Below, one piece after another: positions 46,578-61,326 of a stretch of 64,000 nt of DNA (positions are counted from its first letter, which is position 1; each line of letters starts with the position of its first letter). The DNA is from an uncultured Lentisphaerales bacterium (GTDB taxonomy: Bacteria > Verrucomicrobiota > Lentisphaeria > JABSQK01 > UBA12247): assembly GCA_943788985.1 (NCBI GenBank), contig CALSSJ010000027.1:10184-74183 (forward strand). Direction: 5' to 3'. The notes under the pieces are model-generated. The model had not been told where the DNA came from. It ran no database searches and saw only the letters and a program-made list of their open reading frames with translations. Both the position numbers and the translations under genes were made by a program.

Positions 46578-47002
46578 ATCGCTAGGTGCTTCGAACAGGT
46601 GGTTGCAGAGCCCGACGAGGCCTTACTACATTTGCTGCGCATGGGGAGACCGTTGGACATCAAGCACCTGAAGCAATTCCTCGAGACGTTTTCGGACTAC
46701 ACGGCGCTGGTCTGCACGACTTCTGCTCTCTCGCAGAGAGTCGTAGAAGTGTGCGACCTGCTGGAGATCGGGATCCCGGCGGATCTGAGTATCGCCTCGT
46801 TGCAGCGCGCGGGCACACGACCGGAGAGCGAGTCTGGGGGGAGTTTACCAGTGTTTATTATTGGTGGGAGGAGCTGTTTGCCGCCTGTTTTGCCGCGTTC
46901 GATGCCGGCAGCCGATACCCGCACATCGCCAGCATGGATTTTTTCCCGGAGGTGCTGCGGCATGAAAGCACGGCCCGGCTAGGTCATCTGCCCGGTGCGT
47001 GA
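46578..47002 (+). pseudogene. Decayed 3' fragment of the GntR-family regulator found intact at 49238-50368
   Basis: Near-identical to the 3' third of that gene; frameshift near 46835-46860; similarity fades upstream of ~46608. Confidence 0.85.
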
Positions 47003-47190
47003 CGTGAATTGAGGGCCTCCTGTCCACCACCACACGGCACTGCCGTGCCTGACTACGAACTTGGTCTTCTAGGGGGCCGCGCGGAAATAGATTCGCATTT
47101 TCGCGGGAGCGCCGCAAGGGGATTGCGGATCGCAGCAAATACATGCTACCATAGTTGCAGCATGACATGCTAAGCATTGGAGGTGTTTAC

Positions 47191-47448
47191 ATGAGTGTCA
47201 TTACCTTGCGCGGTCTGTCTCCGGATCTGGTTGAGAGCCTGAAGGCAGAAGCGCGACGAGAGCAAACCAGCATGAACCGGTACATCGTGAATCTCATTCA
47301 GGACAGGCTTGGGGGCAACCAGGCGGGCAAGCCTCGCGTTTACCACGACTTGGACGACCTGTTCGGAACGATGACCCTTGAAGACGCACAGGCGATCGAA
47401 GAGAGTGTCGCGGAGCAGCGTCAGATCGATCCGGAGTTGTGGTCATGA
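47191..47448 (+). CDS. FitA/VapB-like ribbon-helix-helix antitoxin, copy 1
   Basis: MSVITLRGLSPDLVESLKAEA...SMN RHH pattern, acidic C-terminus, GGAGG RBS, ATGA overlap with the toxin. Confidence 0.85.
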   Translation: MSVITLRGLSPDLVESLKAEARREQTSMNRYIVNLIQDRLGGNQAGKPRVYHDLDDLFGTMTLEDAQAIEESVAEQRQIDPELWS

Positions 47449-47837
47449 CCCGCCTGCTGCTGGACACCAACGCGTACAGTCAGGCCATGCGGGGCAAGGC
47501 AACTGCCATGAGCTTGCTGCGCAGTGCGGATCAGTTGCTCGTCTGCCCGGTCGTTCTGGGGGAACTGCTGGCCGGGTTTCGGCGCGGTGCGAGAGAGCAG
47601 GAGAACCGCGAGCAGCTGAATCGTTTCCTGGCGCGACCAAGGGTGATCCTGATGTCGATTGGAGCGGATACTGCGGAGTTCTACAGCCACGTCCTCAGCC
47701 AGCTCCGACGCTCTGGGACGCCGATTCCGGTCAACGACATCTGGATCGCGGCGTGCACGATGGAGCACGGCGCCTCACTGGCGACCCGCGACCGACACTT
47801 CCAGGAAGTCGAGGGGCTGCTGACCATCTCGTATTAA
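47445..47837 (+). CDS. vapC: VapC-family PIN-domain toxin, copy 1
   Basis: LLDTNAY, VLGEL..GF..G, PIPVNDIWIAA, LATRD.HF. Confidence 0.9.
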   Translation: MTRLLLDTNAYSQAMRGKATAMSLLRSADQLLVCPVVLGELLAGFRRGAREQENREQLNRFLARPRVILMSIGADTAEFYSHVLSQLRRSGTPIPVNDIWIAACTMEHGASLATRDRHFQEVEGLLTISY

Positions 47838-47990
47838 CCTGGCATCCCGCTCCTGAATCACCCAGCAAAAGAAGCAGAAACGTGATCATGAGAAGATTGG
47901 TTGTTGTGTTGCCCTTCGCGTTTGAACACACGGATCAAAACAGAGCATGAACATGGCAAAGAGGAGCGCGCGCGACACAAGCCCCATATT

Positions 47991-49237: not shown

Positions 49238-50368
49238 ATGAACATCCTCTTCGATCATGTTCTGAAAGAGAACGGAAGCAGCCTGACCGAGCAGGTCTAC
49301 AACGCGGTCCTGGCGGGGATTCGCAACCAGGAGTGGCGTGAGGGCGAGAAGCTCCCTAGCTACAACGAGTTGGTGGCGGGGTCGGGGGTCAGTCGCAGTG
49401 TCTTTCAGTCGGTGTTCCGGCGTTTGGAGGAGGAGGGTTTTGTGGTGTCGGTCCGGGCGAAAGGCGTGTTCGTCAAGGAAGGCGCGCAGAGCCGCCGCCC
49501 CATCGTCGGACGCGCAGCTGTCATTCTGGGGGTGGAATCGACGCCTGAATCGCTGGCGGTGGGTGGCAGCACCGACGTGTTCGGCCCTCTGGACTTGTAC
49601 AACCTGCAGGCGGATGCTGGCAAGGCTGGCTATGTGATCTCGCTGCATCACGTGAATCGGGAAGGCGGGATCAGCCCGAACCTGACTGACGGCCAAGGCG
49701 AAGCGCTGAAGGGAATCGTGTCCATGGTGCCGGCCGGTTGTCTGGCGAAGTGCGGCGCGTTGCCGGCCCCGGTGGTGTACCTGGGCGTCGAGGATGACTT
49801 CAGCCATCCCCGGGTGTCGGCCGACATCTGTCAGGCGACGCGGATGCTGACGGAACACTTGATCGAACTCGGCCATACAAAGATCGCGTTTCTGGCCAGA
49901 CCCGACTGGCACGATCGGCTGTTCGAGAAGGCATGGCGCGGGTATGCGCAGGCGCTGTCAGGGATCTGCCAGGAGCCCGACAAGGCCTTGCTGCATTTTC
50001 TGCGCATGGGGAGACCGTTGGACATCAAGCACCTGAAGCACTTCCTCGAGACGTTTTCGGACTACACGGCGCTGGTCTGCACCACCTTTGCTCTCTCGCA
50101 GAGAGTCGTAGAAGTGTGCGACCTGCTGGAGATCGGAATCCCGGAGGATCTGAGTATCGTCTCGCTGCAACACGCGCTGATGCGACCGGACTGCGAGTCC
50201 GGGGCTGGGTTTACCAGTGTTACCTATTGGTGGGAGGAGCTGTTTGCCGCCTGTTTTGCCGCGTTCGATGCCGGCAGCCGATACCCGCACATCGCCAGCA
50301 TGGATTTTTACCCGAAGGTGCTGCGGCATGAAAGCACGGCCCGGCTAGGTGATCTGCCCGGTGCGTGA
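49238..50368 (+). CDS. GntR-family regulator with LacI-like periplasmic-binding-fold C-terminal domain
   Basis: GEKLPS..EL...GVSR....L.EEG......KGVFV w[22 protein letters not shown]. Confidence 0.88.
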
Positions 50369-50506
50369 CGTGAATTGAGGGCCTCCTGTCCACCACCACA
50401 CGGCACTGCCGTTCCTGACTACGAACTTGGTCTTCTAGGGGGCCGCGCGGAAATAGATTCACATTTTCGCGGGAGCGCCGCAAGGGGATTGCGGATCGCA
50501 GCAAAT

Positions 50507-50542
50507 AATGCTATCATAATTGCATCATGACATGCTAGCATT
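50507..50542. promoter_or_regulatory. Candidate TA autoregulatory operator
   Basis: AATGCTA...TAGCATT inverted repeat, including TGCTATCA, directly upstream of the antitoxin RBS. Confidence 0.55.
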
Positions 50543-50554
50543 GGAGGTGTTTAC

Positions 50555-50812
50555 ATGAGTGTCATTACCTTGCGCGGCCTGTCTCCGGATCTGGTTGAGA
50601 GTCTGAAGGCAGAAGCGCGACGAGAGCAAACCAGCATGAACCGGTACATCGTGAATCTCATTCAGGACAGGCTTGGGGGCAACCAGGCGGGCAAGCCTCG
50701 CGTTTACCACGACTTGGACGACCTGTTCGGAACGATGACCCTGGAAGACGCACAGGCGATCGAAGAGAGTGTCGCGGCGCAGCGTCAGATCGATCCGGAG
50801 TTGTGGTCATGA
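50555..50812 (+). CDS. FitA/VapB-like antitoxin, copy 2
   Basis: As copy 1, with one amino-acid change (E>A). Confidence 0.85.
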   Translation: MSVITLRGLSPDLVESLKAEARREQTSMNRYIVNLIQDRLGGNQAGKPRVYHDLDDLFGTMTLEDAQAIEESVAAQRQIDPELWS

Positions 50813-51201
50813 CCCGCCTGCTGCTGGACACCAACGCGTACAGTCAGGCCATGCGGGGCAACGCAACTGCCATGAGCTTGCTGCGCAGTGCGGATCAGTT
50901 GCTTGTCTGCCCGGTCGTTCTGGGGGAACTGCTGGCCGGGCTTCGGCGCGGTGCGAGAGAGCAGGAGAACCGCGAGCAGCTGAATCGTTTCCTGGCGCGA
51001 CCAAGGGTAATCCTGATGTCGATTGGAGCGGATACTGCGGAGTTCTACAGCCACGTCCTCAGCCAGCTCCGGCGCTCTGGGACGCCGATTCCGGTCAACG
51101 ACATCTGGATCGCGGCGTGCACGATGGAGCACGGCGCCTCACTGGCAACCCGCGACCGACACTTCCAGGAAGTCGAGGGGCTGCTGACCATCTCGTATTA
51201 A
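50809..51201 (+). CDS. vapC: VapC-family PIN toxin, copy 2
   Basis: As copy 1, with two amino-acid changes (K>N, F>L). Confidence 0.9.
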   Translation: MTRLLLDTNAYSQAMRGNATAMSLLRSADQLLVCPVVLGELLAGLRRGAREQENREQLNRFLARPRVILMSIGADTAEFYSHVLSQLRRSGTPIPVNDIWIAACTMEHGASLATRDRHFQEVEGLLTISY

Positions 51202-51310
51202 CCTGGCATCCCGCTCCTGAATCACCCAGCAAAAGAAGAAGAAACGTAATCATGAGAAGATTGGTTGTTGTGTTGCCCTTCACGTTTGAACACACGGATC
51301 AAAACAGAGC

Positions 51311-52711
51311 ATGAACATGGCAAAGAGGAAGCCGAATGTCGTCTTCATCCTGATCGATGATATGGGCTGGAAGGATCTGGGGTGTTTTGGTGCCAAGCTT
51401 TATGAGACACCCACTATCGATGCGCTCTGTGCTGAAGGGATTCGTTTTCCCCAGGCCTATTCATCTGCCCCCATCTGTTCTCCAGCACGTGCAACCGCGC
51501 TGACGGGTAAGCACCCGATGAAACTCCACATGTGGAACCACACGCACTATCTGCCCGCAGATCAAAAGATATTGCCTGCCTACCTCAAGGAGAACGGCTA
51601 CCAGGCCTGGCATGTCGGTAAGTGGCACATGGGGTGCCCCGAAATGAAAACCTTCCCGACCGATCTCGGTTTCGAAGAGAACAGGGGTGGCGGGATCTCG
51701 TGGGGGCCCGGCTCCTATTTCTGGCCCTACGGCTGCGATGAAGAGGGGGTGCCGGAAAATCCGCGCAATGCTGTACCAGGCCTGTTTGCAGGAGGAGAGC
51801 CAGGGGAGTATCTCACCGACCGGATTGCCGAGGAGGCCATTGATGTCCTTGAGTCGCACACCCCCGGGAAGCCCTTCTTCCTGAACCTGTGGCACTATGC
51901 GGTTCATGACTACAAGGAAGCCAAGCCCGAAGTGGTCAAAAAGTATGAGCGCAAGATTGAGGCGATGGGGCTGACGCCGACCTATCGCATCGACCCCAAG
52001 ACCGGAGCGAAGCTGCTCACAAGCGAGACCAATGCGGTCTATGCCGCGATGATTGAGAGTGTCGACGATTCGGTTGGCCGGGTCGTGGCGAAGATCAAGG
52101 AAGTGGGCGAGTACGAGAACACCTTCTTTATCTTCTTCTCCGACAATGGCTGTACAACCAACGACGTCCCCTGCGTGCCACTGAATGGAGGTAAGAACTC
52201 GAACTATGAAGCGGGCGACCGGATTCCCGCATTCATGGCCTGGCCGGGGATTATCGAGGCAGGTTCGGAATACGACCACCCCATCTACATCGGGGATGTC
52301 TTCGATACCGTTCTTGCCGCTGCGGATATCGAAAAACCTGTAGATCATGAGAGCGACAGCATGTCGCTCATGCCCGTGTTCAGGGGGGAGCGGCTTCCGG
52401 AACGAACATTCATCTGGTACTTCCCGGACACCCGGCTTCATTGGGCACAGCGTGCCAATGCCGCAATCTATGATGAGGCATCAGGGTTCAAATACCTGCT
52501 CTACTTCAATGGCGATTCCGATGAGCTCTTCGACATCCATCACGATCTGGCAGAGGAGAACGACCTCTTTGGGCAGCATCCGACACTGGAACAGAACCTA
52601 CGCGACGAGTTGATCTCCTTTCTGAAGCAACAATATGAGGAAATGCCTCCTCCGCCAAATCAGTTGGTTGACGGCGTCAAGAAGCGGATACTCAATGACG
52701 ATTTGGTCTGA
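51311..52711 (+). CDS. Formylglycine-dependent sulfatase
   Basis: KPNVVFILIDDMGW.D, CSPAR..LTG, GKWHMG, YAVH, SDNG, GK...YE.G.R.P. Confidence 0.92.
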   Translation: MNMAKRKPNVVFILIDDMGWKDLGCFGAKLYETPTIDALCAEGIRFPQAYSSAPICSPARATALTGKHPMKLHMWNHTHYLPADQKILPAYLKENGYQAWHVGKWHMGCPEMKTFPTDLGFEENRGGGISWGPGSYFWPYGCDEEGVPENPRNAVPGLFAGGEPGEYLTDRIAEEAIDVLESHTPGKPFFLNLWHYAVHDYKEAKPEVVKKYERKIEAMGLTPTYRIDPKTGAKLLTSETNAVYAAMIESVDDSVGRVVAKIKEVGEYENTFFIFFSDNGCTTNDVPCVPLNGGKNSNYEAGDRIPAFMAWPGIIEAGSEYDHPIYIGDVFDTVLAAADIEKPVDHESDSMSLMPVFRGERLPERTFIWYFPDTRLHWAQRANAAIYDEASGFKYLLYFNGDSDELFDIHHDLAEENDLFGQHPTLEQNLRDELISFLKQQYEEMPPPPNQLVDGVKKRILNDDLV

Positions 52712-53563: not shown

Positions 53564-56500
53564 ATGAGAGAAGTGATGATGAGAAGATTGGCGATTGTAT
53601 TGGCCTTCACATTTGTGTTTGTACACGCGGTTCTTGGCGGCGACATCTGGGGGACGGGTGAAGTCCCGCGCCTGACGGATCCTGGCAGTGTCCCACAGAC
53701 GCTGGAGGAGGTCTGGGCCGGCTACGAGAAGAACTACGACGAGCACAACCCGCTGGAAGCGATCGTCCACAAGACCTGGCAGCGCGAAGGCGATATCGAG
53801 GTCAACTGGGTGCAGTTGACGGTGGGGAGCTTTCAGGGCAAGAAGGCGATTGTCTGCGGCTACTGGGCCTACCCGAAGGGCGCGAAAGCGCTGCCGGGCC
53901 TCGTCATGTTTCATGGCGGCCCGCAGACCGCCAGCGAGGACGGGGCCGTGAACTGGGCCAAGCTGGGCTATGCCTGCTTCCATCCCAACCACAATGACCG
54001 GGCCAAAATGGGCGGCAAGGCGGCGGGACTGCCCAACACCGACTGGGACGCGGTGAATGCTTGGGGCGCAAAAGGCCCCGACAGCCCGTTCCAGGCAGAC
54101 AAGACCACCGTCGATGCGGCCCCAAGCCCACGCAACAGCTGGCAGTTCCCGCGCCAGATGTCGGGGCGCCGCATCATCTCGTTTCTGGCGCAGCAACCCC
54201 AGGTTGACGCCAAGCGCATTGGCGTGCGCGGGCACTCCACCGGCGGCTCCTTGACCACCTTAGTGAGCATTGACCCGCGTGTGGCTGCCGCCGTCCCCTC
54301 GGTAGGCGGCGTCGGTGGTTTCATGGACGTGCACCCGGTGATCACCGGCAACACCCGCCACCTGCGACTCCAAGGCGAACGCCGCAAGCTGTTCGACGAA
54401 ACCCTGGAAATGCGGACCGTCTGGGCACACATGCACGCCCCCGTGCTGCTGCTCGGGGCTTCGAACGACTTCAACGCGCCGGACTGGAATTGCCTCGAAG
54501 CGCTGAAGCGCGCCACGGTGGACAAGCGCTACGCCTCCTGCGCCAACTACAATCACTCCTTTCCGCCCGAGACCATGGTGGCCGACTACCTTTGGTTTCA
54601 GGACAAGCTCAAGGGGGCATTTACGTTCCCGCCTGCCCCAAAAGCGGAACTGCTCCTGGATCGCGCCACTGGGGTCCCCGTCTTCCGGGTTACGCCGCCG
54701 GAGACGGAGCTGGCGCTCAAGCGCGTAGAGATGTTCTACACCGACGGGCGCAACCCGCTGACCCGCTTCTGGACCACCGGCGCGCCCCAACAGAACGCCG
54801 ACGGGAGCTGGGAGATTGCCTGCCCGGTCCTCTACAACGACGAGCCGCTGACCGCGTTCGCCAACTCATCTACGCGATCGACCCCATTCAGGCGCCACAC
54901 CACAGCTACGATGGCCTCAGCGAAATGGCTGCGACCAGCAACTATGCCGTCGCTATGCCCGAGCACCTCCAGCAGTCCAGCGTCAAGCCGTCGTTCCAAC
55001 AGAGCCGCACGATCGATGACTTTGCTGCCGGGTTGCGCGATTGGGGCGGTAATCTGGGCAATGGGCACCGGTGGAACATCGACACCCGCAAGGTTGCCGA
55101 CGCCCGCTTCATGGGACCGAAGGGCGCCGAACTGGTCCTGGAGGTCAACTCCCCCGCGCCCGGACAGACGATGGGCGTCCTTATCGAGCGCAACTTCATG
55201 GAAGCCAACTTCCGCGAGCACGCCTTCTACACCTTCGTCGAGCTACCGAAACAGGGCTGGAACACGATCCGGATCAAGACGCGCGATCTCCGCAATCCCT
55301 TCGGCTGGGCCCTGGACGATTGGCACAAGGTGTCCCGCCTGACCCTGATGTCCGCGCCGAGCTTGAAGAAGAAGATCGAAGGCGACCTCGCTCGCGTGGC
55401 GGGCAGCGTGGCCCAGCGCCAGGGCGCCGGGGATTCGAAGTACGTGCTGAATCTGGGCGCGGTGCCAGACAAGGTCAGCGGCTGGGACGAAGCCTACTAC
55501 CAGGAAGCCGGGGATGAATACACCAAGTTCAACATGACGACCAAGGATGACGTGCTGGCCCGTCAGCGATTCCGCAACCTTCGTTGGGAAGGTGGGGCGT
55601 ACGTGGCGCGGACCAAGCCCTACGAGCGCGAGCCATACGTCCAGCCGTCCCTCGCCCCGCCGGACGTCTGGCAGGACTACGATCCGGACGCAGGCAATCT
55701 CAACGAGGAGATCATCAGCGAGGAGACAAAGGACGGCATCTACTACAAAGAGTCTTACATCTCGGCCTATGTGAACGGCGAAGACGTGCGGGTCTACTGC
55801 AAATATGCGGTCAAGGCCGGGGCCAAGAATGCGCCGGGACTATTGAACGTTCATGGCTGGATGGGGGGACCGGCCATCGACATGGCGTATGTGCAAGATG
55901 GCTGGGCGGTCATGGCACACGACTACTCCGGCATCACAAACCGTCCCCACTTTACGAAGTATCCCAAGGCATTGGCCCATGGCCACATGGACGCGCGCAA
56001 GATGGGGTTCGCGCTTATCTACGGCAAAATGCCCGACGGCAGCCAGCTGACCGACCCCAAAGCCACGTCGCACTACCTCTGGAATGCGGTGCAGCGCCGG
56101 GCGCTCAGCTACCTCCTCGCGCAGCAAGAAGTGGACCACGATCGCATTGGCGCCAAGGGCTATTCGTATGGCGGCACGATCATGTGGAACCTGGCCATGG
56201 ACGCACGGGTGAAAGCGGTCGTCGCCTACTTCGGCATTGGCTGGATCGACTACTACCGAAATCGCGCGGTGTGGCGCTACAACGTCCCGCACAAGAACCC
56301 AGCAAAGACCCCGGGCGAGGCACTCTTTCTGTCCGCCGTCGCGCCCCAGGCGCACGCGCCGCACATCACCGCAGCGAGTCTCTGGCTGAACGGTTCCAAC
56401 GACCACCATGGCGGCCACGAGCGAGGCTGCGAGACCTTCAAGAGTTTCAAGGAAGGCGTGCCCTGGGACTTCGCCATTCAGGCCCGCGGTCACCACAACA

Positions 56501-57741
56501 CCGAGAAGCTGGGGGATGATTGCAAGCTCTGGCTGGAGAAGCACGTGCTCGACAAGAAGCACTTCTGGCCAGTGCGACCGGAGTCCGAGATCAAGCTCGA
56601 TGCTGCGGGTGTGCCGGAACTACAGCTCACGCCTGCGAGCCCGGAACGGATCAAGGAACTCCAGGTGTATCAATGCCTGAAGACCGCCAACAATATCGAA
56701 CGCTACTGGCGCGATGTGCCGTCGGAGCGTAGAGGCAACACCTGGATCGCCAAGCTGCCGGTTATGAACGTGGCCGACTACGTCTTTTCCTATGCTAATA
56801 TCCGCTACGACAACGACTGCGTCGTGTCGTCGGACTTTGAAGCGGTGATTCCTGCGACACTTGGGAACGCCGTGGCCACAGACACCCGGTCCGATGTGCT
56901 TCCGGGCGGCGCCGATCGCTGGAGCCATGTCGCACCTGCCGAGGGCGTCGGCGGCATCGAAGGGTTCCGGCCGATTGATAATCGCCGGGGAACCCAAAGC
57001 GGTCAGTTCGCTGACCCGAAATGGAAAGCGCCGCGCGGCGCGAATCTGACCTTCAAATTCTATTGCACACAACCGCAATCGCTGGTGCTCTGGGCGGACC
57101 GGTTTGCGACTGACATCGAAATTTCCGCTTCCGACGAGTGGCAGAGCATGACCGTACAGGCACGCACGTTGAAGCAGCAATCAGGACAGGCCTTGGCTGA
57201 CTGGTCAACGGTCAAGACAATCGGCTTCAAGCCGAAGCCGGGGGAGGATATCACCAAGGTGATCTTTGCTGCATTCAAATGGGAGGTCTCGGAGGCGCAG
57301 ACACCTTCTACACCTGTGGCGGACAAGGACGGCAAAGTCTATCTGACTGGTGAGATGGCGAGTGCCTGTGAAACGTTCTGGCGTGTGCTTGATGATAAGG
57401 GTGTTGAAGGCAAGCCACTCAGCGTCGGCGGCAAACAGTACGATCGCGGCTTGGGCGTGCATGCCGACTCCAAAATCAGCTTCCCGCTGAATGGCGCGTT
57501 TGCCGCCTTTCATGTCGTGCCCGGTCCGGATGACGCCCACAAAGGTCTGCTGGAAATGAAGATTCTGGTAGATGGCAAAGAAGTCTATGCCAGCGGTGCC
57601 GTAAGCAGTTCAGGATTTAAAGCGAAGCCCCTGACACTCCCCGTGGTCGGAGCCAGGGAGTTGACGTTGATCGTCACGGATGGCGGCAACGGCAAGGGCG
57701 GCGATCATGCCAGCTGGGCCGATGCCCACCTCGTAAAATAG
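53564..57741 (+). CDS. Large secreted protein: two alpha/beta-hydrolase (dienelactone hydrolase/acetylxylan esterase-like) modules, putative carbohydrate-binding domains and a C-terminal NPCBM/NEW2 domain; 1-nt frameshift near 54865
   Basis: Signal peptide; HGG and RIGVRGHSTGG; second module HGW and RIGAKGYSYGG; C-terminal GLGVHADS...L.L.VTDGG.G..GDHA.WADA.L. Confidence 0.75.
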
Positions 57742-57748
57742 GGTTGAT

Positions 57749-58456
57749 ATGAAATGTATGAATGTGAGAATGGTTGTGGCCTTTGGGCTGCTTGCGGCGA
57801 GTACCTTCGCTGTTTCGAATTTGCCGCTGCCGGCGGAGATCTTTGACGTGAACGGAAGGCGCGCGTTTGTGATGCAGCCGGAAAAGCCAGCGGCGGGAAG
57901 TCCGTGGGTCTGGTATGCGCCGACCTTGCATAGCTATCCGCACCACTCGCAGCGGTATTATTTTGAACAGCTGCTTGAACACGTAATCGCGGTTGCCGGT
58001 TATGATTTGGGCGAGGTCCGCGGCGCACCGGTCAGTTCAAAGGCGTTCACCGGGTTTTACGACGCGATGGTCGCAAAAGGCTATTCGCCCAAGCCGGTTT
58101 TGCTGGGCCAGAGCCGGGGCGGGCTGATGCTGCTGTGCTGGGCGTTCCGCAACCCGGATAAGGTCGGGGCGTTTGCCGGGATCTATCCGGTGTGCAATAT
58201 CGCCAGCTGGCCGCTTCAGCGTTCCAAACCGTCGGTACTGGCGGATTACGGCATGTCGGAAGAGGAGATCATGAAAAAGCTGGATCTCTTGAATCCGTCT
58301 GAAAATCTGGACGGGCTCGTGAAGGCGGGCGTGCCGATGTTTATCATTCACGGCGATTCCGATCGGCCCGATTCAATCCGTCTTCCTCGTTGGCAAACGC
58401 GCGGTTACAGGAAGAACGAACCACTGATGAACACTCATGGGCACGGATCGATCTGA
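57749..58456 (+). pseudogene. Secreted alpha/beta hydrolase, 3'-truncated near 58360
   Basis: PWVWYAPTL, GQSRGG, GIYPV, IHGDSD, then the sequence runs into repeat DNA; the catalytic His region is absent. Confidence 0.65.
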
Positions 58457-58750
58457 ACTGCCTAAGATTAGGAGGATATCGCGGGCAGGCGCCCAGAGCA
58501 CAACAGGGTCTACCACGGAGACACGGAGGCACGGAGGCTGCAGGTTTTCGTTGAAGAAGGAAAAGGATCGATGTCTCTTCTTCTGTTATCTCTGTGCTCC
58601 CTGTGTCCTCCGTGGTGAAGCAACACCGCAACGGGCCACCCAGCATGTCAACAGATTCTACCACAGAGAACACAGAGGACACGGAGGCTGGCCAGGATGC
58701 AAAAGCCACAAGATCCGCTCCTCTTATCTCTGTGCTCTCTGTGTCCTCCG
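58419..58750. repeat. Cluster of palindromic elements with triple-heptamer arms (CACRGAG x3 and CACNGAT x3)
   Basis: Arms at 58419-58448, 58510-58540/58586-58619 and 58658-58690/58724-58750. Confidence 0.85.
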
Positions 58751-60271
58751 GTTACGCCAGCTATGCTGGATTATTCTCCCCACATGAAAGGAGGTGGGAC
58801 TGACAATTGTTTGTTTATCAGTTAGTCGCGCTTCGGCGTGTTGCGGTAACAATGCACGCGAAAGGTAGCGGTATCGGCCCTGTGGTCGATGCGATTGACG
58901 ATGGTACGTCCAGACGACGAAGATGTGAGCCCTAATAACGTGAACTCGTTTCGGCCTCGTTACACAAATGCCGATGGCCAACCTCCCGGATGTGGTGAAG
59001 TCTATTACCGATGCTGACTTAACAAACCTTCGTAGGCATCGGATCGGTCGGGGTGATTGGAGAGAGCGCGCATCGAAAGAATAATCATAGTATCTGGGAT
59101 CCCCTCCCCGTGGCACCGAGCTGGAGGTCAGCGAAGCGCAAGGGCAGGTGCGGAATCAATAACGCACTTACCTGCGGATGAGGGAGTCGGAGTGGCTCGT
59201 ATGAGCGTTGACGCAGGGTAATGCCTGTCGAGCAAAGGGGCTGCACCGTTATTACGTTTACAAAACAGAAAGGAGTTCCGCTTGAACGTACCGCGTTCCA
59301 CTACGGAAAAGGCACAACCGGTCGGATTCAAATCTGAGCCAGGTTTGCCGTTTAAACTCTCCTTGCTGCGTTGGAAGCTACACCGCAAGGCCAAGCAGGA
59401 ACCGGCGTTTCGGTTTTATGCTCTGTATGATCGGCTATACCGGCGCGATGTGCTGGAAACGGCCTATCGCCTGGCAAAGAAGAACGATGGCTCTCCGGGT
59501 GTGGACCAGGTGTCATTTACTGACATCGAAAGCTGCCCTGGCGGGTCGGCAGGCTTGATTGATCTGTTGCAGGAAGAACTACGCAACAAGTCGTATAAAC
59601 CGTCCCCAGTCAGACGGACGTATACCGAAAAGGAAAACGGCAAACAGCGCCCCTTGGGAATCCCGTGCATTCGGGACCGAGTGGTGCAGACGGCTGCAAA
59701 ACTGGTCCTGGAACCGATCTTTGAGGCAGACTTCTTTGACAAGACGACAATAATCGATCTGCGTCAAGAGCGTGCGAGCCTGGACTTTCTTGGGTTCACA
59801 CTGCGCTATGACCAAGATCTCCACGGTCGACCCGGACGAAGGTACCTGAACACCTTTCCGAGCAAGAAGGCGGTCATGAAGCATCGCGAGAAGCTTCGGG
59901 GTTTTACCCGCAGCGGCTACAAGCGTACGCTGAGTGACACCATTGCGAAGGTAAACCAAGCGAATCGTGGCTGGAAAGGCTACTTTGAGCCTGGTTATCC
60001 ACGGCAGTGTTTCAGGGGTATGAACCATTTCGTCCTTGGGCGTTTCAAGTCGTTCATTAACCATCGTAGTCAACGACGATGCCGACCTCTACGAGATGGG
60101 GAAAGCCTTTATGCCGGTTTAAGGCGTATGGGCTATGAACCTCTCTAATCCCGGCGGAGTCGGGCTTGCCTGTGCATGCCTGCGGCGAGAATAACGGGAG
60201 AGCCGTATAGTGGAAATCTCTATCTACGGTTCGACGAGGGCCCCGGGCTTAAACCCCCGGGGCTACTCTAC
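58751..60271 (+). mobile_element. Group II intron with internally deleted RT
   Basis: 5' GTTACGCC; domain V GAGCCGTATAGTGGAAATCTCTATCTACGGTTC (~60200-60232); domain VI hairpin ending GCTACTCTAC; RT ORF inside. The 5' boundary is inferred from the interrupted repeat. Confidence 0.85.
59282..60148 (+). CDS. ltrA: Group II intron RT/maturase lacking RT3-RT6 (no PQG or YADD)
   Basis: RT0 (RFYALYD, PGVD), RT1-2 (Y.P.PVRR, GKQRPLGIP.IRDRVVQ, LEPIFEADF) joined in frame to KT.IID...FLGF and the X domain (N...RGW..YF). Confidence 0.85.
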   Translation: MNVPRSTTEKAQPVGFKSEPGLPFKLSLLRWKLHRKAKQEPAFRFYALYDRLYRRDVLETAYRLAKKNDGSPGVDQVSFTDIESCPGGSAGLIDLLQEELRNKSYKPSPVRRTYTEKENGKQRPLGIPCIRDRVVQTAAKLVLEPIFEADFFDKTTIIDLRQERASLDFLGFTLRYDQDLHGRPGRRYLNTFPSKKAVMKHREKLRGFTRSGYKRTLSDTIAKVNQANRGWKGYFEPGYPRQCFRGMNHFVLGRFKSFINHRSQRRCRPLRDGESLYAGLRRMGYEPL

Positions 60272-60462
60272 TGTTCATCGGTGGTTGCCCTCTTTCCCTG
60301 TTCAACGGAACAGCGGGCTCAATCCGCTCCAATTTCATTCTCGTTTCGTTCTCTGGGTCGGCCTGGCAGGCCAACCTACTTCGGGAGGGCGGCGACGAGA
60401 ACGGATCACGATTGCTCTGGGCTTTATCAGTGTCCATCGGTGGTCATCGGTGGTTGCCCTCT
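60272..60462. repeat. Right arms of the CACNGAT-type element (remnant at 60272-60293, complete arm at 60426-60455)
   Basis: TGTTCATCGGTGGTTGCCCTCT and TGGTCATCGGTGGTTGCCCTCT form a 22-nt direct repeat; both are reverse-complement-like to 58419-58448. Confidence 0.8.
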
Positions 60463-60471
60463 TGCCCTGTC

Positions 60472-61326
60472 TCATTCTTTGGAGCCGCCTTGGCTCATGC
60501 CTTCGACGTAGTACTTCATGCCAAAGACAAAGACCAGGATCAGGGGCAGGGCGCCAAGCATGTAGCCAGCGAAGGTGGGGCCCATCTGGAATCCTGACTT
60601 CGAGAAGTTCTTGACGGCGACCGCGAACACTTGGATGGCGTCGTCTGAGATGGTCACCAGTGGCCAGATGTACTCGTTGTAGATGCCAACAAAGGTCAGA
60701 ATGGCGACCGTGGCAAAGATGGGCAGAGACTGCGGGATGGCGATGGAGCGCCAGATCTGCAGTTCGGAGGCGCCGTCGATGCGAGCCGCGGCAAACATGT
60801 CCTCGGGCAGTGATTCATAGGCGGTTCTGAACAGGTAGATGCCGAGGATCTGGCCGCCGGAGAGGAAGGGCAGGATGAAGACCCAGCGGGTGTTGAGCAG
60901 GCCGCTGCCGCCCTGGCCCAGCCAATCGTTGCCGCCGAGAAATGGGAATTCCTTGTACCACAGGTAGCCGGGCACGAGGGTCAGGATTCCGGGGATCATC
61001 ATCAGGAAGATGATCGCCGTAAACAGGACGCCCTTGCCACAGAATTTGAGACGGGCAAAGGCATAGCCGGCCAGCGAGCTGAGCACCAGTACGCCCGCGA
61101 CGATGGCAATGCAGATGATCATGCTGTTGAGAATGGATGGATAGAGCGCCACCCAGGACTGCTGGTAGTACTCGGGACGGAGGGTCGCCGGCAACGACCA
61201 CAGGCTGCTGTGAACCTCGCCGTTGGTCTTCTGGGAAAGCAGCAGGGCGATGTAGAATGGCAGCAGTGTCACCATCAGCAGCAGGGACAAGACCAGAATG
61301 GCACCAGTGCTTTTTACCCTATTCAC
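60472..61326 (-). CDS. Carbohydrate ABC transporter permease (MalG-like)
   Basis: AGYAFARL.F.GK, EAA-like loop AAARIDGASE, YNEYIWP. Confidence 0.9.
   Translation of the reverse strand: MNRVKSTGAILVLSLLLMVTLLPFYIALLLSQKTNGEVHSSLWSLPATLRPEYYQQSWVALYPSILNSMIICIAIVAGVLVLSSLAGYAFARLKFCGKGVLFTAIIFLMMIPGILTLVPGYLWYKEFPFLGGNDWLGQGGSGLLNTRWVFILPFLSGGQILGIYLFRTAYESLPEDMFAAARIDGASELQIWRSIAIPQSLPIFATVAILTFVGIYNEYIWPLVTISDDAIQVFAVAVKNFSKSGFQMGPTFAGYMLGALPLILVFVFGMKYYVEGMSQGGSKE

Follow-up and report, generated by a model that had tools for sequence, protein, structure and literature searches.

The DNA considered here is a stretch of 64,000 nucleotides from an uncultured Lentisphaerales bacterium (the window; contig CALSSJ010000027.1), which carries on its + strand an internally deleted, class F-like group II intron of 1,521 nt (58751..60271, GTTACG...CTCTAC), of an endonuclease-less type. 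It is inserted at CTCCG/TG (the slash marks the insertion point) in the final heptamer of a CACNGAG-type repeat arm, and it is highly probable that its lineage homes into such heptamer arrays by RNA–DNA pairing. The 5′ junction reads CTCTGTGTCCTCCG/GTTACG (58750/58751) and the 3′ junction CTACTCTAC/TGTTCATCGG (60271/60272), with TGTTC as the first exon bases after CTACTCTAC. The initial annotation of the window had placed the intron in the right arm of a hairpin element at this heptamer; the sequence confirms both the split arm and the 5′ boundary, the 5′ end being fixed because related introns align from the first intron base. The intron starts with GUUAC, as compared with the 5′ consensus GUGYG, and members of its clade have GUGCG, GUACG, or GUUAA at the aligned position. 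Domains V and VI lie at 60198..60271 (+) and are covered there by an Rfam match to RF00029 (39.5 bits, E 1e-5) slightly below the gathering score of 40; Rfam at the gathering threshold gave zero matches. The domain V loop is 5 nt long (GAAAU, 60213-60217), and the intron terminates in AC, in agreement with a group II 3′ end (domain V/VI, AY). Matches to microRNA families in Rfam at the locus were rejected as hairpin artefacts.

The arrays of this genome are composed of two or three heptamers of the form C[AG]CN[AG]AN with a period of 8-10 nt. Triple arms number 60 by a broad pattern, compared with 12 for a reversed control, and 19 compared with 4 by a stricter one; some arrays are paired as palindromes, and many are solo. 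At the locus, a type-B (CACNGAT) left arm of three units with a degenerate middle unit (58422..58448, +) is followed by an intact type-A (CACNGAG) palindrome at 58512..58616 (arms 58514-58536 and 58590-58614), which folds with a z of -3.5; the intron-less paralog reaches -4.2. The second type-A palindrome (58662..58750) has its left arm at 58662-58686 and its right arm at 58728-58750, where the intron cuts the third unit. The 3′ exon (60272..60287, +; TG TTC ATCGGTG GTTG) is the rest of a type-B right arm, and an empty target that shares its tail, in the form of an intact type-B right arm, lies at 60426..60452 (+). The 3′ flank keeps the register proposed for it, 60272-60301 matching 60441-60470 at 28 of 30 positions.

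The open reading frame (ORF) for the reverse transcriptase (RT)/maturase, in domain IV of the intron, encodes 288 amino acids (59282..60148, +) and has lost 186 residues in frame near 59738. These are residues 153-338 (the RT core with YADD) of the full-length protein P0002, to which the remainder is 97% identical. P0002 passes TIGR04416 with a score of 342 (cut-off 300), while the deleted window copy scores 152 and fails; the GIIM (maturase) domain was found in the window ORF. The Pfam domains of P0002 are RT and GIIM only, and the protein stops after the maturase, with no endonuclease domain. No intact RT of this clade was found elsewhere in the assembly, which has 48 contigs totalling 4.58 Mb and a completeness of 83.6%, and which holds a 3′ intron remnant on contig C11, a fragment on C30, and, on C31, a frameshifted RT of another group. 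Because its RT lacks YADD and the assembly holds no other full copy, the window copy is non-autonomous: it is dead and cannot move by itself. The ORF deletion, like the second exon-binding site described below, is an addition to the initial annotation. The C11 remnant (L009, G000:C11:111264-111471) is the 3′ part of a related intron followed by CG and a CGCTAAA-type unit, and is a second historical insertion, into a different array subtype. Deletion derivatives and ORF-less mini-introns are frequent in the clade, with the exact array insertion retained; short copies include L178 and L181 (423 nt), L450 (602 nt), and L006 (728 nt), as well as L434 and L002. Two clade members (L080, L081) have an unusual 5′ end, GAAAGCGCC, and are sited in CGCTAAT-type arrays.

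DNA similarity yielded relatives of the intron in 7 of 61 and in 9 of 401 genomes; further ones came from RT similarity, and others from a domain I motif search blind to the flanks, with matches in 16 of 401, 14 of 401, and 9 of 351 genomes of three phylum samples; some motif matches are due to chance, and a profile filter was applied afterwards. One version of the domain I pattern was too strict and had matches in 0 of 5 genomes. RT scans of genome contigs and metagenomes returned mostly distant g3/g4 introns, which were used as the outgroup, and at 80 loci on viral contigs among the matches listed no such domain I was seen save one weak match (E 8e-4). The junction census excluded L024 (outside the clade, boundary unsure), loci without a 5′ end, L476-L478, and four loci below the profile cut-off (L002, L184, L204, L444), all of which lie in arrays by eye; the starts of L080, L081, and L400 were placed by hand.

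In this census, the two-unit signature T[CT]NG[CT]G N2-4 T[CT]NG ends 35 of 46 distinct 5′ junctions, against a background of 0.055%, and the array-ending junctions are spread over 26 of the 30 genomes or contigs of the RT clade. The motif-only subset, drawn from the phylum-wide samples, has 16 of 23 junctions in arrays, in 14 of 16 genomes. On the other side of the intron, 3′ flanks that start with TG or CG and complete the unit make up 44 of 47 in the clade vs. 12 of 80 in the g3/g4 outgroup. Clade records include genomes of Lentisphaeria, Kiritimatiellae, Chloroflexota, and Nitrospirota, and genomes in the phyla to which a Planctomycetales and a Desulfuromonadales record belong. The one-contig genome G076 carries eight copies with seven distinct flanks, all eight in ATCCGTG-type arrays. 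The junctions, the 3′ flanks, and the G076 copies bear out the earlier suggestion that the lineage uses dispersed repeats as its target, and aligning the flanks across relatives, as had been advised, placed the other copies mostly in arrays and not in unrelated sequence.

The exon-binding sites (EBSs) of the intron point to how this target may be read. EBS1 (CGGATG, 58987..58992, +), whose offset within domain Id is fixed, is complementary to 5 of 6 bases of the type-A site here and to 6 of 6 of type-B CATCCG. The predicted partner of EBS2 (ACACA, 58962..58966, +) is the GTG that closes the preceding heptamer, and that of a candidate EBS3 (A, 59056, +) is the first 3′-exon base. The corresponding intron-binding sites (IBSs) at 58740..58750 (+), identified by sequence and by covariation in relatives, are IBS2 TGTGT (58740-58744) and IBS1 CCTCCG (58745-58750). 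Over 28 genomes with 11 distinct EBS1 5-mers (L408 and L028, whose loop is deleted or divergent, were excluded), pairing of EBS1 with its own flank averages 4.68 of 5 bases vs. 3.49 ± 0.13 after shuffling, and 0 of 20,000 shuffles reach 4.68, a figure that is not a true probability because the genomes are related and the pattern is post hoc. Pairs of EBS1 and site include CGGAUG with CATCCG-type sites, CAGAGA with CTCTG, CUAAU with ATTAG, CGAAUG with CATTCG, and CCAAAA with TTTTGG. EBS2 reads ACAC where the preceding unit ends in GTG (13 genomes) and ACGC where it ends in GCG (12 genomes), with three other cases. Both EBS1 and EBS2 fall in unpaired loops of a 15-sequence consensus fold, the single-sequence fold of domain Id being uninformative (z 0.62). 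The looped CGGATG earlier proposed as EBS1 is upheld by covariation with the flanks. At the candidate EBS3, A is present in 11 of 11 introns whose 3′ exon begins with T, and G in 4 of 6 whose 3′ exon begins with C, but the consensus fold pairs this column.

Class IIC introns had been invoked as an analogy, and under IIC-like targeting the DNA hairpin of the palindrome would be recognised with a short EBS1 alone. The window site does lie within a palindrome arm (z -2.5 to -4.2), and partner arms within 300 nt are enriched, at 12 of 43 junctions vs. a background of 2.6%. However, the other 31 junctions have no partner arm at that distance, nor has any of the eight G076 copies by the search pattern used; EBS2 is present and covaries with its target in 25 of 28 genomes; and the RT groups with class F references and not with the outgroup RTs. 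The IIC feature of insertion just after a stem-loop is also lacking, the insertion being inside the arm. The analogy is not supported, and IIC-like targeting is considered very unlikely. In G076, no copy sits inside the CTCCGTG palindrome cluster of that contig, as predicted by its EBS1 (CGGAUA; CGGATA in DNA), which fits ATCCGTG arrays. Because EBS1 and EBS2 covary with array subtype and a partner arm is present at so few junctions, the target is likely a tandem array, recognised by base pairing over two neighbouring units; a hairpin is common at the sites but likely not required.

In the RT tree, the array-targeting RTs that it includes form one clade of 29 rows (SH-aLRT 97), which together with L024 is sister to class F g3 (Ni.ha.I1, L472) plus g4 (T. 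drewsii intron, L055), and the class F-containing node holds 61 rows (SH-aLRT 98); the tree comes from a quick search with no bootstrap, 67 of 133 candidate rows, and only four other RTs as outgroup. The reference intron ids were taken from Table S2 of PMC3552965. The basal class F group consists of Ge.ur.I1, So.us.I2, Pe.th.I2, and c-Ku.st.I1 (PMC3552965), and the RT position outside g3 and g4, in a tree without these four named introns, would fit this basal group of Toro 2013 (PMC3552965), as would the exon motifs given below for Ge.ur.I1-1. Class F features found in the lineage are the lack of an endonuclease domain and, as listed in PMC3753933, EBS1 and EBS2 in domain Id loops and a 5-nt domain V loop; the consensus fold has a stem-loop at the Id3 place where class F bears alpha-prime. 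The intron is class F-like, not IIC.

Several points weigh against array homing by pairing, beyond the relatedness of the genomes in the shuffle test and the quick search behind the RT tree. The strict pattern is missed by 11 of the 46 junctions; four of these, in G045 and G057, belong to a nested lineage residing in MITE-like terminal repeats (MITEs are miniature transposable elements with inverted repeats), and others are degenerate sites, for instance four of six in G1053. The array pattern was, furthermore, written after the first flanks had been seen. The nested sister lineage (L003, L004, L008, L014, L017) carries EBS1 CAAGAU or CAAAAC and is inserted in the terminal inverted repeat of the MITE-like element, for which 24 and 64 empty sites were found (L238-L267), with 0 in the control. 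The CAAGAU and CAAAAC versions differ between copies within one genome and match the targets of this nested lineage.

At the window locus, the 5′ flank of the intron is a type-A array and the 3′ flank is type-B, matching type-B arms at the boundary of the second and third units; 13 other matches of the 3′ flank occur at <=2 mismatches, and 9 of these are preceded by ATC[ACG]G. The two repeat types had been remarked on before, and the arrangement recurs in another sequencing run. A chimera assembled over collapsed intron copies might be suspected from the 48-contig assembly and the low depth over the intron (2-6), but a single 1,807-nt contig of run X2 (record 13) spans 58706-60512 with both junctions, 0 differences, and a depth of 2. 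Run X2 is an unlikely source of the 74-kb window contig because it has no cover beyond 60512. Run X1, taken separately, covers the 5′ junction as well as the ORF deletion, though by the 31-nt rule not the 3′ junction. An assembly join at either end is thus unlikely, a chimera is extremely improbable, and the mixed arrangement is probably real.

Intron-less alleles, which it had been proposed to look for, were found in a paralog on C29 and in runs X2-X4. The C29 paralog of the upstream 3.3 kb (window 55264-58530) is 98% identical and holds an intron-less arm that reads on as CTCCG/TGGTAAG; the duplication ends in the repeat cluster. In runs X2-X4, the depth of the C29-type allele exceeds that of the intron allele, which suggests strain variation.

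Recombination of two copies of the intron, lying in different arrays, is the most likely and also the simplest cause of the swapped flanks, and repeated introns are known substrates for ectopic recombination (PMC3522654). Such an exchange would have taken place at the edge of the duplicated segment. Two results count against it: no reciprocal junction or product of the swap was found in the 83.6%-complete assembly, and the C29 allele displays arm-to-arm recombination at this very locus, with a 158-nt skip and an 11-nt overlap. The latter would suit a microhomology crossover of a type-A with a type-B arm, giving a hybrid array into which the intron was inserted later; the arms have TC(C/G)GTG in common, and mixed arms are present in the genome (C31:90578). 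In this history, however, the crossover would have to lie no more than ~6 nt from where the intron inserted, two intron copies of 2 kb offer far more homology, and an empty hybrid allele is absent among the listed run contigs, so it is held to be the less probable account. A local deletion joining the left arm at 58422 to the 3′ flank is not favoured because no type-B right arm occurs within ~1.2 kb downstream at the C29 paralog. Recombination between two intron copies thus remains the preferred explanation of the mixed flanks.

According to the proposed mechanism, EBS1 would pair with the opening 5-6 bases of a unit, EBS2 with the terminal G[CT]G of the preceding unit, and the candidate EBS3 with the first base past the cut. 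These pairings would guide reverse splicing, and priming may come from nascent strands at the replication fork, by analogy with RmInt1-type endonuclease-less introns. Replication-fork priming is established for endonuclease-less introns such as RmInt1. Through changes in its EBSs, the intron would be adjusted to whichever array subtype is present locally, and intergenic sites would presumably carry a low cost; since most arrays lie between genes and occur in many copies, dozens of likely harmless sites would be available per genome, and homing into them is likely how the lineage persists.

Heptamer arrays may be associated with GxxExxY genes, and this association was examined in the present genome. 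A GxxExxY gene on C21 (TIGR04256, 142 bits; L465, G000:C21:53239-53970) directly follows a triple CACTAAT arm and has a CACTAAT-type palindrome on each side, while a second one on C12 has no arm by the same pattern, so that one of the two GxxExxY genes in the genome is array-flanked. An array-linked GxxExxY nuclease might nick or open the arrays and supply the primer, in addition to base-pair targeting. This nuclease-assisted homing would agree with the position of the C21 gene between array palindromes, with a GxxExxY ORF adjoining intron locus L436, and with an RT without an endonuclease domain. It is opposed by the C12 gene without an arm, by the presence of the motif at only one intron-bearing locus, and by the G045 lineage, which left the arrays and still spread. 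Nuclease help is accordingly regarded as speculative and rather unlikely. Equally doubtful is the wider view that the cross-phylum clade might be a dedicated parasite of GxxExxY heptamer-array elements, using EBS1 and EBS2 to sense the period of the array, retuning its EBSs to each array subtype, and priming from the nicks of the array nuclease; if true, a retroelement would borrow the endonuclease of another selfish element.

The homing target of RmInt1 is ISRm2011-2. Like RmInt1 (class D) and introns "hiding" in mobile elements (PMC7306698), the array lineage is endonuclease-less and would home, guided by base pairing, into a multicopy selfish element; unlike that of RmInt1, its target is a periodic, non-coding array of 16-27 nt, and EBS changes follow the array subtypes across phyla. 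It resembles basal class F in its endonuclease-less RT/maturase, its full length of ~2 kb, its EBS1 and EBS2, and its 5-nt domain V loop. It resembles class IIC in its insertion at dispersed non-coding sites, often hairpin-forming, whereas class IIC has no EBS2 and uses DNA stem-loops (PMC3753933; PMC8643678) and the present lineage has a covarying EBS2 and often solo arms. As for insertion sequences that target repetitive extragenic palindromic (REP) sequences, such as ISPpu9, ISPa11, and IS621 (PMC1525189), small extragenic repeats serve as safe landing sites with one fixed position; those elements are DNA transposases, in contrast to a retroelement ribozyme, and the repeat here is not a classical REP.

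Three of the four basal F introns are listed in "putative non-coding sequence" in Table S2 of PMC3552965. For Ge.ur.I1-1, three IBS1 variants were described, with AUUCG 9 nt and CAUUCG 19 nt upstream, together with IBS2 CGUGU; the repeated IBS1 was treated as the cause of alternative splicing, and EBS2 was dispensable for IIF splicing in vitro, with a role in homing suggested (PMC3753933). These IBS variants have the pattern of a CACGAAT-type array, as at locus L194. The words "repeat", "palindrom", and "tandem" each occur 0 times in the main text of PMC3753933, and the available passages of it and of PMC3552965 name no homing target or repeat family. Full-text searches, most of whose results came as listings, returned no description of the target or arrays, and no formal family of GxxExxY-associated arrays; the same applies to term look-ups in the available text of PMC8919778, PMC7306698, PMC8643678, PMC12584367, PMC8934634, PMC2504315, and one 2026 preprint. 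The lineage is thus apparently an unpublished specialisation of a known intron class.

On this reading, a natural target would be provided for a group II intron lineage for which no description of homing sites was found, and EBS2 would have a role in homing, namely to read the tandem array's second unit. The alternative 5′ splice sites of Ge.ur.I1-1 would be explained as a by-product of the periodicity of the target. The many natural pairs of EBS and target would amount to a rule set for retargeting an endonuclease-free intron, and pairs of introns in dispersed arrays are likely rearrangement points. The dead window copy and the conventional mechanism limit the surprise.

Other observations were made in the relatives. 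G076 has a REPIN-like cluster of ~20 CTCCGTG triple arms with alternating orientation over 18 kb (G076:C1:1873600-1892000). Three of its intron copies bear the same insertion sequence (IS)-like insert of ~1.5 kb near intron base 47, with a 350-amino-acid ORF that is IS110-like by eye (L223, L225, L227, L476-L478; L226), and another copy has an apparently different IS within the intron. In a metagenome-assembled genome of Desulfobulbaceae, more than a dozen copies of a g4-side intron (L031-L047) occur, most of them after CGTAGG and some nested in tandem.

Around the window locus, an alpha/beta-hydrolase-like ORF lies upstream of the intron (57749..58456, +; weak Peptidase_S9 match below the cut-off), whose final codons traverse the first repeat arm and whose segment is duplicated on C29, and a convergent ABC-transporter permease gene (60472..61326, -) marks the end of the downstream operon. 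Further upstream, an ORF at 53564-55342 shares ~850 nt, in another frame, with the ORF at 54490-57741, which suggests a frameshift within one large multi-hydrolase gene (53564-57741). Window segments 46636-47965 and 50001-51329 form a segmental duplication of hydrolase-like genes at 96% identity.

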